A DNA stretch of 64,000 nucleotides from a virus: the IMG/VR virus record IMGVR_UViG_3300045988_102159, positions 32,001-96,000 of that record. The stretch is one strand, 5' to 3'. A program made the translations under genes and the position numbers. How positions within the stretch are numbered: position 1 is the stretch's first letter; every line of letters starts with the position of its first letter. Below, in pieces: positions 256 through 55,958 of this stretch. The notes beneath the pieces are model-generated. The model was given only the letters and a program-made list of their open reading frames with translations. It ran no database searches and was not told the origin of the DNA.

Positions 256-540
256 AAAACGAATTGAAGCCCTATATAGTGATATATAGTACAAATTGCC
301 TAACATGCGGGAAACTCCTAAAACTTTATATTACTAAACTAATACAGCAATGTATTAGCGGCAAAGAGTAATGTCTGAGATATAGTAATAAGATATAAAG
401 ATATGTGGACAATCCGCAGCGAAGTTTCTATTTAAAATAGAAAAACGTTCAGAGACTATAATGGCACATCTTATATAAGATGAAGGTATAGTCCAGACAG
501 CAACCAGTTTACTGGGCTTATGAAAATTAGTGCTGTAAAG
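256..540 (+). ncRNA. group I self-splicing intron, ORF-less (285 nt), in dnaE-like gene
   Basis: Exon end GGCUUU pairs with guide GAAGCC (266-271, G.U at the splice site). The adjacent AAUU (262-265) pairs with the first exon-2 bases AAUU. A T4 td-intron-like block GACAATCCGCAGC lies at 408-420. The last base is G540 and all frames are stop-rich. Confidence 0.8.
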
Positions 541-2674: not shown

Positions 2675-3032
2675 GTGTTTGAAACTAATTCAAGCTCAAC
2701 ACATACGTTAACTATCTGCTCAAAAGATGATTTTGACAAGTGGAAACATGGCGAGGTATTCTGGCTTGATAACGATTGGCACAAGTTAGATACAAATAAG
2801 AATTTTGTCACTCCAGAAGAACTGAAAGAGCTTGCGGAAAAGCCTTATGCCGCAAGATAAATGGGATATGTTCTATATGGGTGATGAAGGTAGCTCCACG
2901 ATGTATGTTGATATGGTCAATCGTGAGTTTGCGGCGAATTCTACGTCTGAAACTCGCTATCCTCTTTTGGACAATGTAGAAGATATGTTGAAAGTAATTC
3001 ACCAAGAGAAGAAGGGAAAAGATATTGACTAA
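2675..3032 (+). CDS. hypothetical protein (N-terminus MFETNSSSTH), reading frame interrupted (ORFs 2675-2860 and 2832-3032)
   Basis: Two ORFs overlap in frames offset by +1. The second frame is open only from 2826, so the switch lies in 2826-2858. Possible pseudogene, indel or recoding. Confidence 0.4.
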
Positions 3033-4224
3033 ATATATTACAAAGCGAAATGGAAATAAAGTAGAGTTCGATATTTCTAAGATTGAAAATGCGGTATTTC
3101 GTGCGGCATGTGATGTTTCTGGTACTCATGGATGGACATCAACGTTTTGTCATGAGGTTGCGAAAGATATTGCGCATGATTTTGAAAAAGCTGAGTATTA
3201 TCATGACGGCATGACGGTAGAAGAGATTCAAGATGCTGTTGAAGAACTGCTCATGGGCGATTTTCCGCATGTTGCAAAGTCATATATGATTTATCGTTAC
3301 GAACATCAGATTGCACGCCAGAAACAACTTGACAAAGAGTTTTTTGAAGTAATTGGCAACTATGAAGATGGCTATTGGGCAACAGAAAATTCAAATAAAC
3401 GAGCAGAATTAGTTACAACCCAACGAGACTACCTTGCCGGGGTTGTAAGTAGAGATATTGCAAGAAACTATATTTTCCCAAAAGATATTGTAAAAGCCCA
3501 TGATGAAGGTATTATTCACATTCATGATATGGATTATGCCGCGCAAAAAACCCTTACAAATTGTTGCTTAATTAACTTAGAAGATATGTTGCAGAATGGA
3601 ACCGTTATTAACGGAGTAACTATTGATAAACCACATCGTTTAATCACAGCTTCGACGATTGCAAGCCAAATTATTGCCTGCGTTGCTAGTTCACAATATG
3701 GTGGGTCGTCAATTACACTGACTCACCTTGCTCCTTTTGTTAGGGATAGTTACAATTTATATTTAGAAAAATATAAAAATCGTGGTTTTAGTGAAGAGCT
3801 ATCTATTAAATACGCTAAAGAAGACACAAAGAAAGAAATTGCTGATTCCATCCAGACTTTAAATTATCAAATCAATTCTTTAATGACTACAAATGGTCAG
3901 ACACCTTTCTTGACGATTTTCTTATATCTGAATGAAACCGAAGAGTACAAGGAAGAATTAGCGGCTTTAATTAAAGAAATGCTGAACCAACGAATCCTTG
4001 GCATGAAGAATCGTCAAGGCGTATATGTGACCGTTGCTTTTCCAAAATTAATTTATTGTCTTGAAGAAGATAATATTAAAGAGGGTACTAAATATTGGTA
4101 TCTTACTGAGCTTGCGGCAAAGTGTTCTGCTAAACGTTTAGTTCCAGATTATATTTCAGAAAAAGTTATGAAGCAGCTAAAAGTAGACAGTAATGGTAAC
4201 GGTCATTGCTTCCCTTCGATGGGT
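3025..4224 (+). CDS. nrdD: anaerobic ribonucleoside-triphosphate reductase NrdD, exon 1
   Basis: TTG start and an ATP-cone-like N-terminus (ITKRNGNKVEFDISKIENAV). Class III RNR core. The exon ends ..CFPSMG, exactly 400 codons. Confidence 0.9.
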
Positions 4225-30378: not shown

Positions 30379-32679
30379 CTAGAATCTCTCTATTGACTGA
30401 TTGCATGAGACAGTCATTGCATTGCCCGGTCCAAGAGGAATAGAAAGTGTGTTTAAATTATAGTCACCATATGTATTAGTAGAGGTATCATTTAATTCAA
30501 TTCTAGAATTAGGCTCTAAGTAGAACACTGGTAGTCCAGTAATTGATACCGAGTTTTGATAAGTTGTATGCAGATATAATTCATATTTCACTTGGTCAAA
30601 TGCACCATTTTTATAACCACCAGTAGCAAGATTATAAAAAATTTCACCACGCACCTGAGTATATGGCATACCATTATCTTCACATTCCTGTTGCTTTGTC
30701 CTGCCTTTGTCATCTTCATCAGCATTGATAAATACGATGTTTGGAATTTCAGGCGCGAATAGGCAATTCACAGTATCAGATGATACTGCATCTGTTCTGC
30801 GGCCAATAGCAGAAACAGAGAATTGACCTAAATCGGATGTTGAAGAATCAATAAAATCTAAGAAGTAATTACCATCTGTCAACGAAGACGTAAGTAATTC
30901 CGCATTTTCTTTTTCTCTAATAAACTTTTGGTCTACAAGGTCATAAACTTGCGGCCAAAACGCATCAAGCTCTTCAAAATAATAATCAGTATCTATCCTA
31001 CAATTATGTGCATATTGTAGAACATCTCCTTGCCAACCAGCAATACTATCAATTTTTGCATAATAATTACCAGAATCAATACCATTCTTTTTAGCTAACA
31101 TGCCTTCAAGATAAAGCTCAGTACGCCAGTCTTTAACAAGATAACCTCCATTGACTATTGGAGCTGGTACTGGCTTATCTTCTTCTTTAGTGTCCTCAGA
31201 ACTAGTTTCCGCAATAGTAGATACTGACAACGTATCTACTGCTGGATAATATGCTGAACATTTTAAAGACTTATATGTATCGTCTTTCCAATAGTAAGCA
31301 AACTTATTTGTGGCATCGAAATAAATAGTATTAAATTCACCAATAGAAGGAAAATCATTCTTCGTTGTATACACCGTAGGAAATGCGGCTTTTATTTCTT
31401 GGGTAGACTCTTCTGTATATAATAATAAATTATAATATGTATTATAATAATTATTACCACGTTCATCTGATGTAACAGGCAAAGGTTTGCGGTCAATACA
31501 AAGATGATAACGAACGTCTACTTGCTGTTGACTATTTGTACCTTGGCGTTTGCCTTGAATAATAAAATCATTTTTAATATTATTAAATTGAGGTGTTTTG
31601 CTAATACTGATAATATTGTCTTTGTCACTAAAAGTATATACACTTTTACCTGTAGTCGTTTCTACAAGATAATCGTGTTTCTTCATATCATTTACTAAAG
31701 TAGTTGCTTGCGTGGTATTAAGATAATTCTTAACTTCCCTAAAATGAAATACACCAAATTCATCATAGAAATATTCAAAATTACCAAGATAGCTTTTAAT
31801 CTTATCGAGTACAGATGTTACGCTTTCGCCAAGATTGGCAGACAGTTCAGAATCATATACAAAATCATCATAAACATAACCACAGTCTTGACCACTTAAA
31901 ATCTCAATAGTACCATCTTCTAATGTTTCTGGTTTGTCAATATATGCCGCATACCATATAACTCCAGCGCTACCACTTTGTTTGGGCACGAGATACAACG
32001 GGTTAGAACCTGTCCATTTCATTACCCTTTTAATGCGGCGAGGTACATCCTCAATAACGATATTGTTTAAATCTTCACCACCATAATGATTCACTAGCTC
32101 TTTGATAATGTCATAGATTAATACCTTTTTAGTAACATATGCGCCACTTGCGTCCTGCGTATCCATTTCATCGAAGATAACAGCCGCGGGTAATGTACCA
32201 GAAACATCACCAGATAAACCGCACATCTTATCTTTCAGTGTCAGCTGTAAAGATACCGCAGATGAAACAGAAGATGATGCACTTGCACTTGCAATAAAGA
32301 AAACACCTTGAGGAAACCATAAGATAGGATAATTTAGAAATTGATTGCTATGGTTTTCAACGCCAATTTCAATAAAAATTTTCTTGTTGATTGCAAAATC
32401 ATATGACATATTTTCAATATCATATTCACCGCTATCAATAGATGCGGTCAATGAGCAAGTGCGTCTGATAGACGAAGAACCGTCTTTAGAAAGACTGCCA
32501 GACGCAATAACGCCTTGAATCTCCTTTAACGGTTCTTCGTTCCAATTGAGGAGGGTTAGCCGTACATACTGTTTTTGATTTACAAAATTATCAATAGTCT
32601 TGAGAAAATTTCTACGCTTTAATGCACTATTGGCATCTTCATAAAAGCTGTCATTTAAATAAGGATATGTCCTTCTCAT
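30379..32679 (-). CDS. baseplate/tail-tip structural protein
   Basis: 766-aa ORF. The N-terminal region (..GVIASGSLSKDGSSSIRRTCSLT..) resembles prophage tail/baseplate hub proteins. The family is not certain. Confidence 0.6.
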   Translation of the reverse strand: MRRTYPYLNDSFYEDANSALKRRNFLKTIDNFVNQKQYVRLTLLNWNEEPLKEIQGVIASGSLSKDGSSSIRRTCSLTASIDSGEYDIENMSYDFAINKKIFIEIGVENHSNQFLNYPILWFPQGVFFIASASASSSVSSAVSLQLTLKDKMCGLSGDVSGTLPAAVIFDEMDTQDASGAYVTKKVLIYDIIKELVNHYGGEDLNNIVIEDVPRRIKRVMKWTGSNPLYLVPKQSGSAGVIWYAAYIDKPETLEDGTIEILSGQDCGYVYDDFVYDSELSANLGESVTSVLDKIKSYLGNFEYFYDEFGVFHFREVKNYLNTTQATTLVNDMKKHDYLVETTTGKSVYTFSDKDNIISISKTPQFNNIKNDFIIQGKRQGTNSQQQVDVRYHLCIDRKPLPVTSDERGNNYYNTYYNLLLYTEESTQEIKAAFPTVYTTKNDFPSIGEFNTIYFDATNKFAYYWKDDTYKSLKCSAYYPAVDTLSVSTIAETSSEDTKEEDKPVPAPIVNGGYLVKDWRTELYLEGMLAKKNGIDSGNYYAKIDSIAGWQGDVLQYAHNCRIDTDYYFEELDAFWPQVYDLVDQKFIREKENAELLTSSLTDGNYFLDFIDSSTSDLGQFSVSAIGRRTDAVSSDTVNCLFAPEIPNIVFINADEDDKGRTKQQECEDNGMPYTQVRGEIFYNLATGGYKNGAFDQVKYELYLHTTYQNSVSITGLPVFYLEPNSRIELNDTSTNTYGDYNLNTLSIPLGPGNAMTVSCNQSIERF

Positions 32680-49373: not shown

Positions 49374-49739
49374 CTTGTGTCTTAAACTCGGTCGTTAATC
49401 GAGTCCATATATAAATCCTATATGCTTCTCGTTTCCAAGAAGAAGAGACTATATTTTCTATAAAAATAGAACATTCTTTCGGATAGACTTCTATCCTATC
49501 AGAGCCAATCCTGATAGTCGTTGAACCTTTTACTAAATAGCAAAGTGGCTGCGGATTATCCAATTTTTATATCTTTTTACTATACCTAAGACATTACTCT
49601 TCGCCAATATTATATCACTATAATATTTTAGTAATATAAAACTCTAAGGATTTTCCCGCAATTTAATATTTTTCTTATAATTTAAATTATAAGCCCAATA
49701 TTTTCACTTATATATTTTAAGCAACAAGTAAAATCTTTT
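49374..49739 (-). ncRNA. group I intron (366 nt) in the tape measure gene
   Basis: Shares blocks with the tail-gene introns (AAATTGCGGGAAAATCC, GGATAATCCGCAGCC at 49547-49561, GGTTCAACGACTATC, ATATAGTCTC). Boundaries were chosen by the U/G rule and reading frame (..TREAP|EQIGNG..) and are uncertain by a few nt. Confidence 0.7.
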
Positions 49740-53178: not shown

Positions 53179-53319
53179 TTATTTAGCTACAGACCTCTTT
53201 AGCTTAGAAACACTGGGAGTAGTCTCAGCTCCTGAAGTCTTAGTAGTCGAATCAACTGCGTTAGCAGTTACGTCTGAATGTTGTTCATCAGCCGCAGATT
53301 CAGTTGACGTTGCGGCCTT
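53179..53319 (-). other. -1 frame open extension (46 codons) beyond the tail-gene stop
   Basis: The -1 frame reads KAATSTESAADEQHSDVTANAVDSTTKTSGAETTPSVSKLKRSVAK and ends 3 nt before the terminator hairpin. Confidence 0.35.
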
Positions 53320-53524
53320 TATTCCCCCGCTGCTTCTGAGAAGACAGACTTAGAATACCAACTATCTACATCGGAATCCTTTGTGCGGCCATCGTGACCA
53401 AGGACATCCTTATTCTTGTAGTTGTGGGTCGTATCAGTCTTATCAACAACCTGTAGCGTAGCCATAACCTTCTTCTTCTTGTTGAACTTGGTGTAGGCAG
53501 GCATACAGTCAATAGTGAATGTAA
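53319..53524 (-). CDS. major tail (tube-type) protein candidate, exon 5
   Basis: ..(F)TFTIDCMPAYTKFNKKKKVMATLQVVD..SEAAGE. In frame with exon 4 only through the junction ACCU|UUACA. Confidence 0.7.
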
Positions 53525-53781
53525 CATTATGTTATCTTATAGTTTCCTATAAGTTCAGACTATATCTTCACCTCTAATAATAGAGGGTTTTCCACTTCGC
53601 TTTGTTATAAAGCTACTCCATAAAGGATAGTCGTTGAACGTACTCGTTCGCTGCTGATTACCAGTTAAGGCTTCCAGCAATTCAAAAAAGATTTTACAAC
53701 GCATCGCTGCGCAGGTACCCGAACATCACTTTAAAAGACTACTAACAGACCAATTAAAGACTAATAGCAGACATTCTAGAC
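53525..53781 (-). ncRNA. group I intron D (257 nt)
   Basis: Contains the blocks GAATTGCTGGAAGCC, GGTAATCAGCAGC, GTTCAACGACTATC and AGATATAGTCT. Exon end GUACCU can pair with GGGUAC (53715-53720). It ends in G. Confidence 0.7.
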
Positions 53782-54431
53782 AGGTACTTGGATCGCCATT
53801 GTTCGCCATAGAGAACGTAAAGTTACTCTGGATTTTACCACGAGGAATGACGAATTCGGCAGGAAGGTCTACGCCAGTCTCTTCATCACGGAAAAGTGTA
53901 GACGCTTCAATGTAATAGTAACCAGCGAAGTTCTCAGCATCAATCTGCATCTCATAGGCTTCATCGTAATGAACCTCATAGCAGTCAATGCGGACGGTAT
54001 CGCCAGCCTTTACAGCGGCATCTTGCTTGCTATCGCCGGGTTCATCGGCGGCAAGCTGGAAAGCGATAGTTTTACCTTCGGCTTGAATCTCACCATGATC
54101 GCCAAGGGTGGCGGCAGCTAGGGTCTTGCCATCATTGATAACAAAGACCTGCTTGTCGGTGACAGCAGAAAGGTAATTAGCTTGAGCACCAGCACTATCA
54201 AGAGTAACAGGATAGATAGGAGCTTCTTTTGTAACGATGATAGTCGCGCCATTGCGGTCTTCATCGGTTAACTTGGCGATAATCTTATCGCCAGAGGTTT
54301 CGGCAACCATATCATATGTAGCATGGACATAGATAGGAGTCTTATTTTCACCAGTTTTCTTACCGTGTACTAGACCAGCACCAGACAGCATAGCGAAACT
54401 GGTAGGACTCATTAGAGAGTCTTCAAGAGTG
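53782..54431 (-). CDS. major tail protein candidate, exon 4
   Basis: (L)TLEDSLMSPTSFAMLSGAGLV..FAGYYYIEASTLFRDEETG..FTFSMANNGDPST. Beta-rich structural sequence. Confidence 0.8.
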
Positions 54432-54658
54432 CTTTTTAAACATATATACTTTCATATATAAACAGACTATATCTTATCTTTCGATTTTCTCACTTCCTTG
54501 CTTACAGCAAGTACACCTATACAGGTTAGTCGTTGAACCATTTTATTTGGCTGCGGATTGTCTAATTCTTATGGATTATTACTATAAAATAGTACCATAA
54601 AACTCTAAAGAGGTTCCCGCAATTCAAGAAATTTAATGACCCCCACATTTGTTAATTA
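54432..54658 (-). ncRNA. group I intron C (227 nt)
   Basis: Exon end GACCCU pairs with GGGGUC (54638-54643). The adjacent GUG (54644-54646) pairs with exon-4 start CAC. Blocks GAATTGCGGGAACC, GACAATCCGCAGCC, GTTCAACGACTAAC and AGATATAGTCT are present. It ends in G. Confidence 0.75.
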
Positions 54659-54679
54659 AGGGTCAGAGTCTTTTCACCA
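54659..54679 (-). CDS. major tail protein candidate, micro-exon 3 (about 21 nt)
   Basis: u GGU GAA AAG ACU CUG ACC Cu encodes (D)GEKTLT(L). It is bounded by a preceding G and a terminal U. Confidence 0.6.
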
Positions 54680-54912
54680 CATTTGTATTATCTGTATCTT
54701 TATATATACATACAGCTTAGACTATATCTTTATTCTTTTAGAATATCTTGCACTTCGGATTGTAGCATCCTACACCTTAAAGGTTAGTCGTTGAACTTTA
54801 CTAAAAGTCTTAGCTGCGGATTCCCCTCGAAAGGGCTTTCCCGCAATTCACAAAATTTATTTCATTCTTAATGGTATACAAGCATTAAGCGGCCTGAGCA
54901 GTGAAGAAACTT
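54680..54912 (-). ncRNA. group I intron B (about 233 nt)
   Basis: Blocks GAATTGCGGGAAAGCC, GGAATCCGCAGCT, GTTCAACGACTAAC and AGATATAGTCT are present. The guide CUCAGGC (54892-54898) pairs with exon GCCUGGG. The 5' junction is uncertain by about 3 nt. Confidence 0.65.
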
Positions 54913-54935
54913 TCCCAGGCGATTAGACGAGGATT
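54913..54935 (-). CDS. major tail protein candidate, micro-exon 2 (about 23 nt)
   Basis: AAU CCU CGU CUA AUC GCC UGG GA encodes NPRLIAW(D), continuing ..VYAQGGKG from exon 1. Confidence 0.6.
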
Positions 54936-55676
54936 CATAATATTCTAAATAGGTCGTTACTCTATTTATTGTTTACACAACTATATATTGCTATATAGAT
55001 TAGACTATATCTTATGCTAGATTACTAACATTTTCCTATTTCAAGCTACTTAGCTTTACTTCCTTGCGGAATAGTCGTTGAACTTTATTGAGTTATCCAC
55101 CTATAACCTCCTGTAGTATGACGTTTACCGCTACAAACAAGGCTAATTTTGCTAACACTACAACCTGTCTGACGATGCGCTTCTGACATACTTTTAAATT
55201 CACCAATAACATTTCCATTTAAATCAAGTTGGTAAACAGGAATCTCTGGATAACTTCCACTATTTACTTTATGCTGAACATAGCTATCATTCTTTTGACG
55301 AATAACCCAACGTAAATTTGTCAAATTATTGTCATCTCGAATTTCGTTTATATGATGACATTCCTCTCCTTCTAATGGAGGGCGAAGAAAAGTCTCAAGA
55401 ACCAAACGATGAATACGCCAATGTTTATAAGTGTTATTCTCTGTATTATATAACTTTACATACTGGTATCCATCTTTGTCATATTGAGGTTTCAACATAC
55501 GTTTAGTTGAAACAGTTCTAATTTCACCATGTTCATTTACCTCATAATAAGGAAAATCTTTTACAACTTTCCACATAAATAGCGCTCCAATCTTAGATGC
55601 TGATTGTCTTATAATACTTATATTATATCATAAGAGTTTCCAGCAGTCAAGGAAATTTTACAAGAGCAATCTATTT
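54936..55676 (-). mobile_element. group I intron A (741 nt) carrying an HNH endonuclease gene
   Basis: Exon end CAAGGGU pairs with GCUCUUG (55661-55667). The adjacent GAUU (55668-55671) pairs with exon-2 start AAUC. Blocks GACTGCTGGAAAC, GACAATCAGCATC, GTTCAACGACTAT and AGATATAGTCT are present. It ends in G54936. Confidence 0.75.
55085..55576 (-). CDS. intron-encoded HNH homing endonuclease (NUMOD4 / HNH_3 / IENR1-like)
   Basis: WKVVKDFPYYEVNEHGEIR (NUMOD4-like), ECHHINEIRDDNNLTNLRW (HNH), and C-terminal ..SMSEAHRQTGCSVSKISLVCSGKR (helix-turn-helix module). Confidence 0.85.
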   Translation of the reverse strand: MWKVVKDFPYYEVNEHGEIRTVSTKRMLKPQYDKDGYQYVKLYNTENNTYKHWRIHRLVLETFLRPPLEGEECHHINEIRDDNNLTNLRWVIRQKNDSYVQHKVNSGSYPEIPVYQLDLNGNVIGEFKSMSEAHRQTGCSVSKISLVCSGKRHTTGGYRWITQ

Positions 55677-55850
55677 ACCCTTGCCTCCTTGTGCATAAAC
55701 AGTAGTAGCAGCACCCTCAAGGCTAGAAGTCTTGGCAGTATCAATGTAAAGCATAGGCTGACCAGCATCGAAGTGCTGACCACCAAGGTCTACGGATGTT
55801 AGTGGCTTGAAGACCACATCACAAATCTCGCGCACACCAAAACGATTCAT
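55677..55850 (-). CDS. major tail protein candidate, exon 1 (58 codons, below ORF-track cutoff)
   Basis: AAGGAG RBS 7 nt upstream. MNRFGVREICDVVFKPLTSVDLGGQHFDAGQPMLYIDTAKTSSLEGAATTVYAQGGKG, then an in-frame stop in the intron. Confidence 0.75.
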
Positions 55851-55958
55851 AGATTTCTCCTTACGTTTAGGAATTTGTATACAGTTTCCTTAGTCATAGA
55901 AACATAACGCGCTAATTTCTATGTCTATTATATAAACGCGGCAAAACCACGATTATAC

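Follow-up and report, generated by a model that had tools for sequence, protein, structure and literature searches.

A human-gut siphovirus tail-tube gene, probably split by four group I introns that leave two consecutive micro-exons

Introduction

The closest described counterpart of the gene treated here is orf142 of phage Twort, which contains three self-splicing group I introns of the phage IA2 type with a 23-nt exon between introns 2 and 3 that is sometimes skipped (PMC10136302, citing Landthaler & Shub 1999), and which was recognised later as a tail-tube gene (PMC11878797). The exons that we derived from AF132670.1 lie at 359-703, 1029-1069 (41 nt), 1322-1344 (23 nt) and 1631-1650 (20 nt), so that all three introns fall inside the final 84 nt of coding sequence. 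Staphylococcus phages such as 812 likewise have introns in tmpA, their tail-tube gene. Here we describe a gene at positions 53319-55850 (minus strand) of a 64,000-nt stretch of viral DNA, hereafter the window, that covers positions 32,001 to 96,000 of the IMG/VR record IMGVR_UViG_3300045988_102159. The source contig (ENA assembly ERZ28662543, scaffold_46, 142,586 bp) comes from a human-gut metagenome. We consider it very likely that the gene encodes the tail tube of an uncultured human-gut siphovirus (~143 kb) and that it is split by four independent group I introns of the phage type.

Introns have been described from other phage genes as well. DNA polymerase and terminase genes of Bastillevirinae contain IA-type introns, up to three per gene and many with HNH/NUMOD4 proteins of PHROG 59, and the polymerase gene of SIOphi undergoes exon skipping (PMC11878797); Cluster J mycobacteriophages carry introns in capsid and tail genes, which are siphovirus structural genes (PMC3706429). 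Outside phages, the 23S rRNA gene of Coxiella burnetii has two group I introns around a 34-nt exon, and exon skipping has been seen there too (PMC10136302).

Gene layout and comparison with intronless alleles

A first-pass annotation, made from the letters of the window, had proposed five exons totalling 357 codons, a first exon with a strong ribosome-binding site and an in-frame stop, and internal exons of 23 and 21 nt. We read and translated the minus strand from 55850 to 53319 (all intervals of this gene refer to that strand), and every coordinate of that proposal holds. The five segments join in frame to a coding sequence (CDS) of 1074 nt, i.e., 357 codons and a stop, with introns after CDS nucleotides 174, 197, 218 and 868. 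Specifically, the ribosome-binding site AAGGAG (55857-55862) stands 6 nt upstream of the start codon ATG at 55850, and exon 1 (55677-55850, 174 nt; MNRF...AQGGKG) has a frame that closes one codon past its splice site (GGC AAG GGT, and unspliced GGT^AAA TAG, where ^ marks a junction). Intron A (54936-55676, 741 nt) is followed by the 23-nt micro-exon 2 (54913-54935, AAUCCUCGUCUAAUCGCCUGGGA, coding for NPRLIAW plus GA), intron B (54680-54912, 233 nt), the 21-nt micro-exon 3 (54659-54679, UGGUGAAAAGACUCUGACCCU, U plus GEKTLT plus CU) and intron C (54432-54658, 227 nt). Exon 4 (53782-54431, 650 nt) includes the gene-caller open reading frame (ORF) at 54412-53726 and codes for the central part of the protein; after intron D (53525-53781, 257 nt), exon 5 (53319-53524, 206 nt with the stop) begins UU-ACA... 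and reads (F)TFTIDCMPAY...AAGE. In-frame stops occur 1, 9, 2 and 18 codons into introns A, B, C and D, respectively, each of which ends in G; introns B, C and D are ORF-free. The exons are compositionally distinct from the introns and the rest of the genome: G+C is 46.6% in the spliced CDS, 31-37% in the introns and 37.8% in the window.

The spliced protein, used as the query in a scan of IMG/VR, found 74 loci. Among the close relatives, 15 (90-92% nucleotide identity) have the gene as a single unbroken ORF of 1071 nt, and L012, also close, differs by a 3-nt indel. The intronless DNA reads ...GGTAAGGGT AATCCTCGTCTAATCGCCTGGGA TGGTGA(A/G)AAGACTCTTACC(C/T)T GACT... and ...CCATCAACAT TTACATTC..., with the junctions at AAGGGT^AATCC, TGGGA^TGGTGA, ACCCT^GACT and CAACAT^TTACATTC. 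Because these alleles read exactly across all four junctions, the inserted blocks are the proposed introns A-D to the nucleotide, an agreement far beyond chance. Distant unbroken homologs are colinear too, as seen in MT835936 (GGKGNTNLIAWEGEKTLTFTVEDALLSPISF and GDPSTFTFTMDAMPGY) and Enterococcus phage EF1 (GGRGNARLLAWEGDKTVTF). At the DNA level no close GenBank phage was found: megablast gave a single 34-nt chance match for the locus and none for 24 kb of the window.

When the spliced CDS was compared with the intronless allele of L004, 86 nucleotide differences changed 82 codons, 78 synonymously and 4 non-synonymously; in the micro-exons of relatives, changes are confined to synonymous third codon positions. 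The spliced frame is thus under strong purifying selection, from which we conclude that the gene is in use and must lose its introns. The spliced messenger RNA (mRNA) is expected to contain GGAGGCAAGGGTAATCCTCGTCTAATCGCCTGGGATGGTGAAAAGACTCTGACCCTCACTCTTGAAGAC across exons 1-4 and GATCCAAGTACCTTTACATTCACT across exons 4-5, two strings that single-nucleotide polymorphisms separate from the intronless alleles (for example CTGACCCTCACT vs CTTACCCTGACT, CCAAGTACCT vs CCATCAACAT), and to read ...UGGGAUGGUGAA... across exons 2-3. Junction peptides expected of the ~39 kDa protein are GNPR, LIAWDGEK, TLTLTLEDSLMSPTSFAMLSGAGLVHGK and ...NNGDPSTFTFTIDCMPAYTK.

Identity of the protein

The gene had been annotated as of major tail type, and profile matches, fold matches and gene order support a siphovirus major tail-tube protein of the Pfam family YomU_Tube. 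The family (PF27173) is assigned, as a precomputed match, to the exon-4 ORF of the source contig and to all 120 homologs listed, and the spliced protein has thousands of homologs that carry the same precomputed assignment; a Pfam release older than PF27173 gave no match to the spliced protein. It also matches PHROG 2729, 'virion structural protein' (E 1e-52). A tblastn search of 50,697 phage records returned 69 matches; the homologs from Bacillus phages bear the annotation tail tube or major tail protein. Hosts of the relatives are Enterococcus, Lactococcus and Bacillus. An AlphaFold model was built on P0001, an intronless homolog 99% identical to the spliced protein, and is of low confidence (pLDDT 65, pTM 0.47), the tube core included. 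Compared with the PDB by Foldseek, it has a siphophage tail-tube protein in each of its 11 best matches (8xkn, 9jgh/9jgi, 6xgr of YSD1 and 8vhx of Chi among them; E 3e-6 to 2e-4), and a sequence search of the PDB with the tail-tube protein gave no match. In gene order, a 2591-aa ORF, presumably the tape-measure protein, follows two genes downstream.

In place of one tail-tube gene, the gene calls of the source contig list ORFs of 59, 228 and 61 aa and an HNH gene. Gene callers thus fragment an essential structural gene, and tail-tube genes of this abundant group of gut phages will therefore be mis-annotated unless introns are modelled.

Group I introns and the endonuclease of intron A

All four blocks, which the first-pass annotation had taken for group I introns, match the Rfam group I model RF00028. 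With the gathering score at 50 bits, introns B (54916-54698, 80.1 bits, E 1e-18), D (53767-53536, 76.1 bits) and C (54668-54443, 61.0 bits) score above it and intron A (55235-54981, 41 bits, E 2e-8) falls below, being matched at a permissive threshold only. The low score of intron A arises because its 492-nt HNH ORF breaks up P6 and the model mis-aligns the 5' half. The weak case of intron A is backed by an ORF-free intron of 216 nt at exactly the same site in the related contig L021, which scores 70.2 bits and aligns with both flanks of intron A. The ends of the Rfam matches in introns A (54981) and D (53536) were tried as 3' splice sites and yield stops or an arginine-rich nonsense frame.

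A terminal G closes 23 of the 23 introns that we mapped (4 in the window and 19 in relatives). The core sequences GUUCAACGACUA (J6/7-P7) and AAGAUAUAGUC (J8/7-P7') occur in all four window introns, lying at 55083-55072 and 55013-55003 in intron A, and by these the introns look IA2-like; introns of the phage-type subgroup IA2, such as those of Twort, 812 and other phages of Gram-positive hosts, share these cores and have additional P7.1/P7.2 helices. Self-splicing is what this set of features would predict. Pairwise identity among the four is 49-63% (53-59% among the clustered introns A, B and C). Compared by blastn, the 3' half of intron A resembles a Twort orf142 intron and tmpA introns of Staphylococcus phages (812 etc.), though weakly (72% over ~105 nt, E 1e-3).

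The ORF in the P6 loop of intron A (55085-55576, 163 aa) has its own GGAG ribosome-binding site. Its Pfam matches are NUMOD4 (PF07463, 1e-8), HNH_3 (PF13392, 5e-7) and NUMOD1 (PF07453, 7e-9), with I-HmuI_NUMOD-like (PF22083) at 3e-4 and under its cut-off, and it matches the HNH endonucleases of PHROG 59 at 2e-34. Its domain content, with NUMOD4 at the N-terminus, HNH_3 as the catalytic domain and a DNA-binding NUMOD1/I-HmuI-like C-terminus, is that of an I-HmuI-like HNH homing endonuclease.

Guide pairings and the micro-exons

Pairings of the guide with the upstream exon (P1) and with the downstream exon (P10) had been judged convincing for introns A and C and acceptable for intron D, and all three have a U.G pair at the splice site. 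In intron A, P1 is CAAGGGU/GCUCUUG (guide at 55667-55661), and AAUC of exon 2 forms P10 with GAUU just upstream of the guide (55671-55668). Intron C has P1 GACCCU/GGGGUC, its GUG (P10) and guide together occupying 54646-54638, and a P10 that covaries among relatives: CAC/GUG in the window and L029, CAGUC/GACUG in L021 and AAC/GUU in L035. In intron D the guide GGGUAC (53720-53715) pairs with the exon sequence GUACCU across a P1 loop of ~55 nt that includes a hairpin, and P10 is ACAU/AUGU.

The first-pass annotation had raised the question of whether such short exons can serve two introns and whether splicing must be ordered. In exon 2, nucleotides 1-4 take part in P10 of intron A and nucleotides 16-22 in P1 of intron B; in exon 3, nucleotides 3-7 take part in P10 of intron B and nucleotides 16-21 in P1 of intron C. 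The P10 and P1 segments within a micro-exon do not overlap and are separated by a linker of 8-11 nt. When each of the four guides was compared with the 3' ends of non-cognate upstream exons, no pairing was found, so the guides are mutually orthogonal. Since the pairings do not overlap and the guides are orthogonal, base pairing would set no splicing order, and we infer that none is imposed.

It is possible, though in our judgement unlikely, that splicing here is deliberately heterogeneous, with exon skipping giving an isoform shorter by 7 residues or truncated products, and with the intron cluster regulating the supply of tail-tube protein. Skipping is documented for the 23-nt exon of Twort, for an exon of 24 nt that engineered Tetrahymena introns flank (PMC10136302) and for the SIOphi polymerase gene (PMC11878797), and in our gene skipping of exon 3 would keep the frame at the junction ..UGG GAC ACU.. 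with a loss of 7 residues. Skipping of exon 2 or of exons 2 and 3 would lead to early stops. The skippable exon 3 holds the invariant residues G67, K69 and T72, and intronless alleles, which are common (626 member sequences in a single 90%-identity cluster), are evidently sufficient without any such regulation. A chimeric ribozyme is unlikely given 49-63% identity among the window introns, as opposed to the Twort introns 2 and 3, which are reported as highly similar and are near-identical. In engineered tandem Tetrahymena introns, distinct splice-site recognition elements favoured exon inclusion (PMC10136302), and the guides of the window introns are orthogonal to non-cognate exon ends. Non-overlapping pairings, orthogonal guides and intron divergence would thus favour inclusion of both micro-exons.

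A probable A at the cleavage site of intron B

The exon upstream of a group I intron ends, as a rule, in U, and the U.G wobble pair that this U forms with the guide is near-universal. Intron B departs from this rule, and its junction had for that reason been left uncertain by about 3 nt. The junction proposed then, GGGA^UGG, stands, and the uncertainty itself is removed by the intronless alleles and by an A conserved in 5/5 site-B introns. Among the shifts checked, it is the sole junction that gives the intronless TGGGATGGTGA together with a terminal G; junctions shifted by -4 to +2 nt give stops, an intron end other than G, or loss of the conserved G67. The 7-bp P1 covaries, being GCCUGGG/CUCAGGC in the window and L021, GCUUGGG/CUCAAGC in L017 and L035, and GGCUGGG/CCCAGCC in L033. 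In the window the guide, G-CUCAGGC, occupies 54899-54892 and the P10 strand, UUCAC, 54905-54901. Each of the five site-B introns follows an exon that ends in A, and this A lies opposite a conserved G heading the guide. We regard the A at position -1, an anomaly, as in all likelihood real at the DNA level.

A neighbouring site offers a comparison. At site A0, located 9 nt upstream of site A, the cleavage-site pair is U opposite G in L018 and L019 and C opposite A in L016, L023, L024 and L035. The near-universality of U.G at the cleavage site and its substitution by C.A are reportedly described by Doudna, Cormack and Szostak (1989). Site A0 is a natural example of this classical isosteric swap, which speaks for having assigned the cleavage-site pair of these introns correctly. 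On natural exceptions to the U.G rule, the literature searched offered nothing useful.

With only a small chance of being right in our estimate, intron B might instead splice at GCCU^GGGA, after the U four bases upstream, and at a 3' site two bases downstream (after AAAUGUG), which is the only way to a U at -1, or might be a weak ribozyme whose splicing depends on a protein or on the introns beside it. The alternative site would satisfy the rule of a U at -1 and is in frame for 5/5 site-B introns, and no in-frame junction with U at -1 and a G-ended intron recreates the intronless sequence. The tail-tube protein would then be two residues shorter (..LIACEK..), at the price of the invariant W65 and G67, and the U would be Watson-Crick paired to an A of the guide, likewise a non-canonical arrangement. 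According to the intronless alleles the inserted block is exactly AAG...AUG, and the G opposite the A is kept in all five introns, as expected of a cleavage-site partner. In L033, moreover, P10 (GGUGAA/UUCAUC) adjoins that G with one mismatch between them (+1 C opposite U). Cleavage after A thus stays our preferred reading of intron B.

Homologs of 39% identity (L071 at 2916-4000, L072 and L074) have an intron 4 nt downstream of site B. The lone frame-preserving junction with a terminal G there is TGG GAA GGG^...AUG^GAA AAA, with G at -1; a guide pairing was sought in these three loci, and none was convincing.

Intron population in related phages

Insertion sites in relatives were mapped on the spliced CDS of the window gene and number at least ten. 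Near the start codon lie site N (17/18; L021, L024, L025 and L033) and site N' (26/27; L023). The next group comprises site A0 (165/166; six loci, L016, L018, L019, L023, L024 and L035), site A (174/175; the window and L021), site B (197/198; the window, L017, L021, L033 and L035), site B' (about 201/202; L071, L072 and L074) and site C (218/219; the window, L021, L029 and L035). Further downstream are sites D2 (855/856; L023 and L035), D1 (864/865; L022, L024, L029 and L070) and D (868/869; the window only). The introns at site A0, inserted after CAGGG(U/C), are of a lineage different from intron A. At site D1 the P1 pairing covaries with a serine codon (CCAUCU/GGAUGG, CCCUCU/GGAGGG and CCAAGU/GCUUGG). 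Two contigs, L021 (sites N, A, B and C) and L035 (A0, B, C and D2), have four introns each and the same 23- and 21-nt micro-exons.

The first-pass annotation had read introns A, B and C as independent insertions into one conserved segment, and this view is borne out by their identity of 53-59% and by their occurrence singly or in other combinations among the relatives. Apart from N and N', the sites fall on two motifs, AQGGKGNPRLIAWDGEKTLT and GDPSTFTF, that are the best conserved of the protein, where the invariant residues are Y52, A53, G55, G56, G58, R61, L62, W65, G67, K69 and T72, and G285, D286, P287, S288 and F292. Such clustering is what homing endonucleases aimed at conserved DNA would produce, and many intron copies in relatives carry HNH ORFs, at sites A0, B, D1 and D2. 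An exact-pattern scan of viral contigs for the core of intron B returned the four contigs already found and unrelated sequences only; a metagenome scan with CGTCTNATCGNNTGGGAA, an overly degenerate pattern, listed 120 chance matches and no tail-tube gene. We lean towards the joint view that the intron B lineage cleaves after an A opposite the guide G and that the YomU-type gene is an arena of homing introns at the population level.

Other proteins and one unusual homolog were observed along the way. The site-C introns of L021 (2604-4008) and L029 (2798-3999) carry ORFs of 303-378 aa in which a Cys-rich motif, CKCDCG, recurs and the C-terminus (PLPFDFAIF...ELNG...QQKHD) is conserved; no Pfam family matches them, and they may be an uncharacterised type of homing endonuclease. 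L025 and L033 (~3600-4000) have a site-N intron behind codon 6 of the tail-tube gene, and the C-terminus of the ORF inside it (..FLESLLDILKKEAGVQGG..KFGKKD..) resembles, by eye only, an endonuclease of the LAGLIDADG type. The homolog in L003, Phage Phass-1 (OQ749652.1, 42820-44436), a TAG-recoded (code 15) gut phage, is 538 aa long, its tube protein being interrupted by a large central insertion; it keeps both of the conserved motifs that host introns.

Proposed mechanism and its weight

Each intron would fold into a ribozyme whose guide, together with the last 6-7 nt of the upstream exon, forms P1. An exogenous G would attack at the 5' splice site, after which the intron's terminal G would dock and the exons would be ligated, with the micro-exons long enough to serve both flanking introns. 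The predicted product is an mRNA of 1074 nt with the same layout as the unbroken alleles of sister phages. Homing endonucleases such as the I-HmuI-like HNH protein of intron A would target conserved DNA and so place introns at conserved motifs, and the ORF-free introns B, C and D are relatives of ORF-bearing copies in sister phages. The data show what kind of introns these are, where exactly they are inserted in the DNA, that P1 and P10 covary and that selection acts on the spliced frame; self-splicing, homing and the lack of an imposed order are inferred from this.

Several points weigh against this picture and call for caution. Splicing at this locus is read from sequence and selection. As Twort micro-exons between group I introns are subject to skipping, the mRNA here may be a mixed population. 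The Foldseek TM-scores are 0.22-0.38 on a low-confidence model, which makes the fold match supportive and not decisive. For intron D, P1 and P10 come from a single sequence, with no relative found at the exact site and no covariation, and the P1 loop is unusually long. Intron B, finally, has A opposite the guide G where the near-universal U.G cleavage-site pair would be expected.

A decaying pseudogene of a defective phage, or a chimera of metagenome assembly, is highly improbable: the phage is uncultured and its contig comes from such an assembly, but the spliced frame is maintained with 78 synonymous against 4 non-synonymous codon differences, the micro-exons are intact with synonymous changes only, an identical exon-4 ORF is present in three contigs, the independent contigs L021 and L035 share the micro-exon layout, and the 142,586-bp contig is as large as related complete phages.

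Other group I introns in the window

Two further introns were seen in the window. One lies at 49374-49739 (minus strand, 366 nt, RF00028 41.2 bits) inside the presumed tape-measure gene, where the ORF at 50708-49704 and the 2591-aa ORF at 49319-41544 are one gene that it splits; L004 and other intronless relatives are contiguous across GAAGCCCCU^GAACAAAUC. This fifth intron has U at -1 and a terminal G, and L016 has the same intron. The sixth, at 256-540 (plus strand, RF00028 62.9 bits), is missed by the default Rfam filters. Its host is a DnaE-like gene for the alpha subunit of DNA polymerase III, with HHH_6 (1.5e-21) in the downstream exon, and it is positioned in the conserved motif GYGF^NLSH with P1 GGCUUU/GAAGCC and U.G at the splice site; the ATG given by the ORF finder at 520 falls within it.

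Implications and comparison with known systems

The relatives form a natural series in which the same gene has 0, 1, 2, 3 or 4 introns at at least ten sites. This series lends itself to work on homing dynamics, on the loss of endonuclease ORFs and on the way in which adjacent ribozymes tethered by exons of 21-23 nt fold and splice without skipping. If our reading is right, the gut-phage YomU-type gene, which has at least ten sites, carries up to four introns per allele and so more introns than any phage gene in the literature searched, where three is the most reported for one gene and where no paper concerns introns in YomU-type tail-tube genes. Likewise, the A.G pair of the intron B lineage would take the place of U.G and make the gene family a natural test bed for 5' splice-site recognition; the conserved A, if borne out by complementary DNA (cDNA), would break the U.G rule in a natural intron.

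The first-pass annotation knew of no phage gene with this architecture, a claim that Twort orf142 contradicts with its three introns, its 41- and 23-nt exons and its skipping. Both are tail-tube genes with at least three clustered group I introns and two consecutive short internal exons. The differences are that Twort has three introns and internal exons of 41 and 23 nt whereas the window gene has four introns and internal exons of 23 and 21 nt; that Twort is a myovirus with a 142-aa tube protein whereas the window protein is of siphovirus type; that the Twort introns sit at the 3' end of the gene whereas three of ours lie near codons 58-73 and one at codon 290; and that the window gene alone has an intron (B) with A at -1. 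None of the 69 tblastn matches among the phage records is in a Staphylococcus phage, so the two host genes are taken as analogous, alike in architecture.

Compared with the other systems, introns of Bastillevirinae are biased to DNA-metabolism and terminase genes, a bias that the authors stress, and the available part of that report describes no consecutive micro-exons (PMC11878797), unlike in our tail-tube gene. The available text on Cluster J likewise indicates no multi-intron clusters or micro-exons (PMC3706429). The Coxiella gene resembles ours in having a short exon between two different group I introns, and differs in being a bacterial rRNA gene and non-coding. The kind of layout and the mechanism are thus already known, and the locus is striking, not unprecedented; its new points are four introns in one gene, two consecutive micro-exons of at most 23 nt, an unrelated tube protein of a siphovirus and a splice site preceded by a base other than U.

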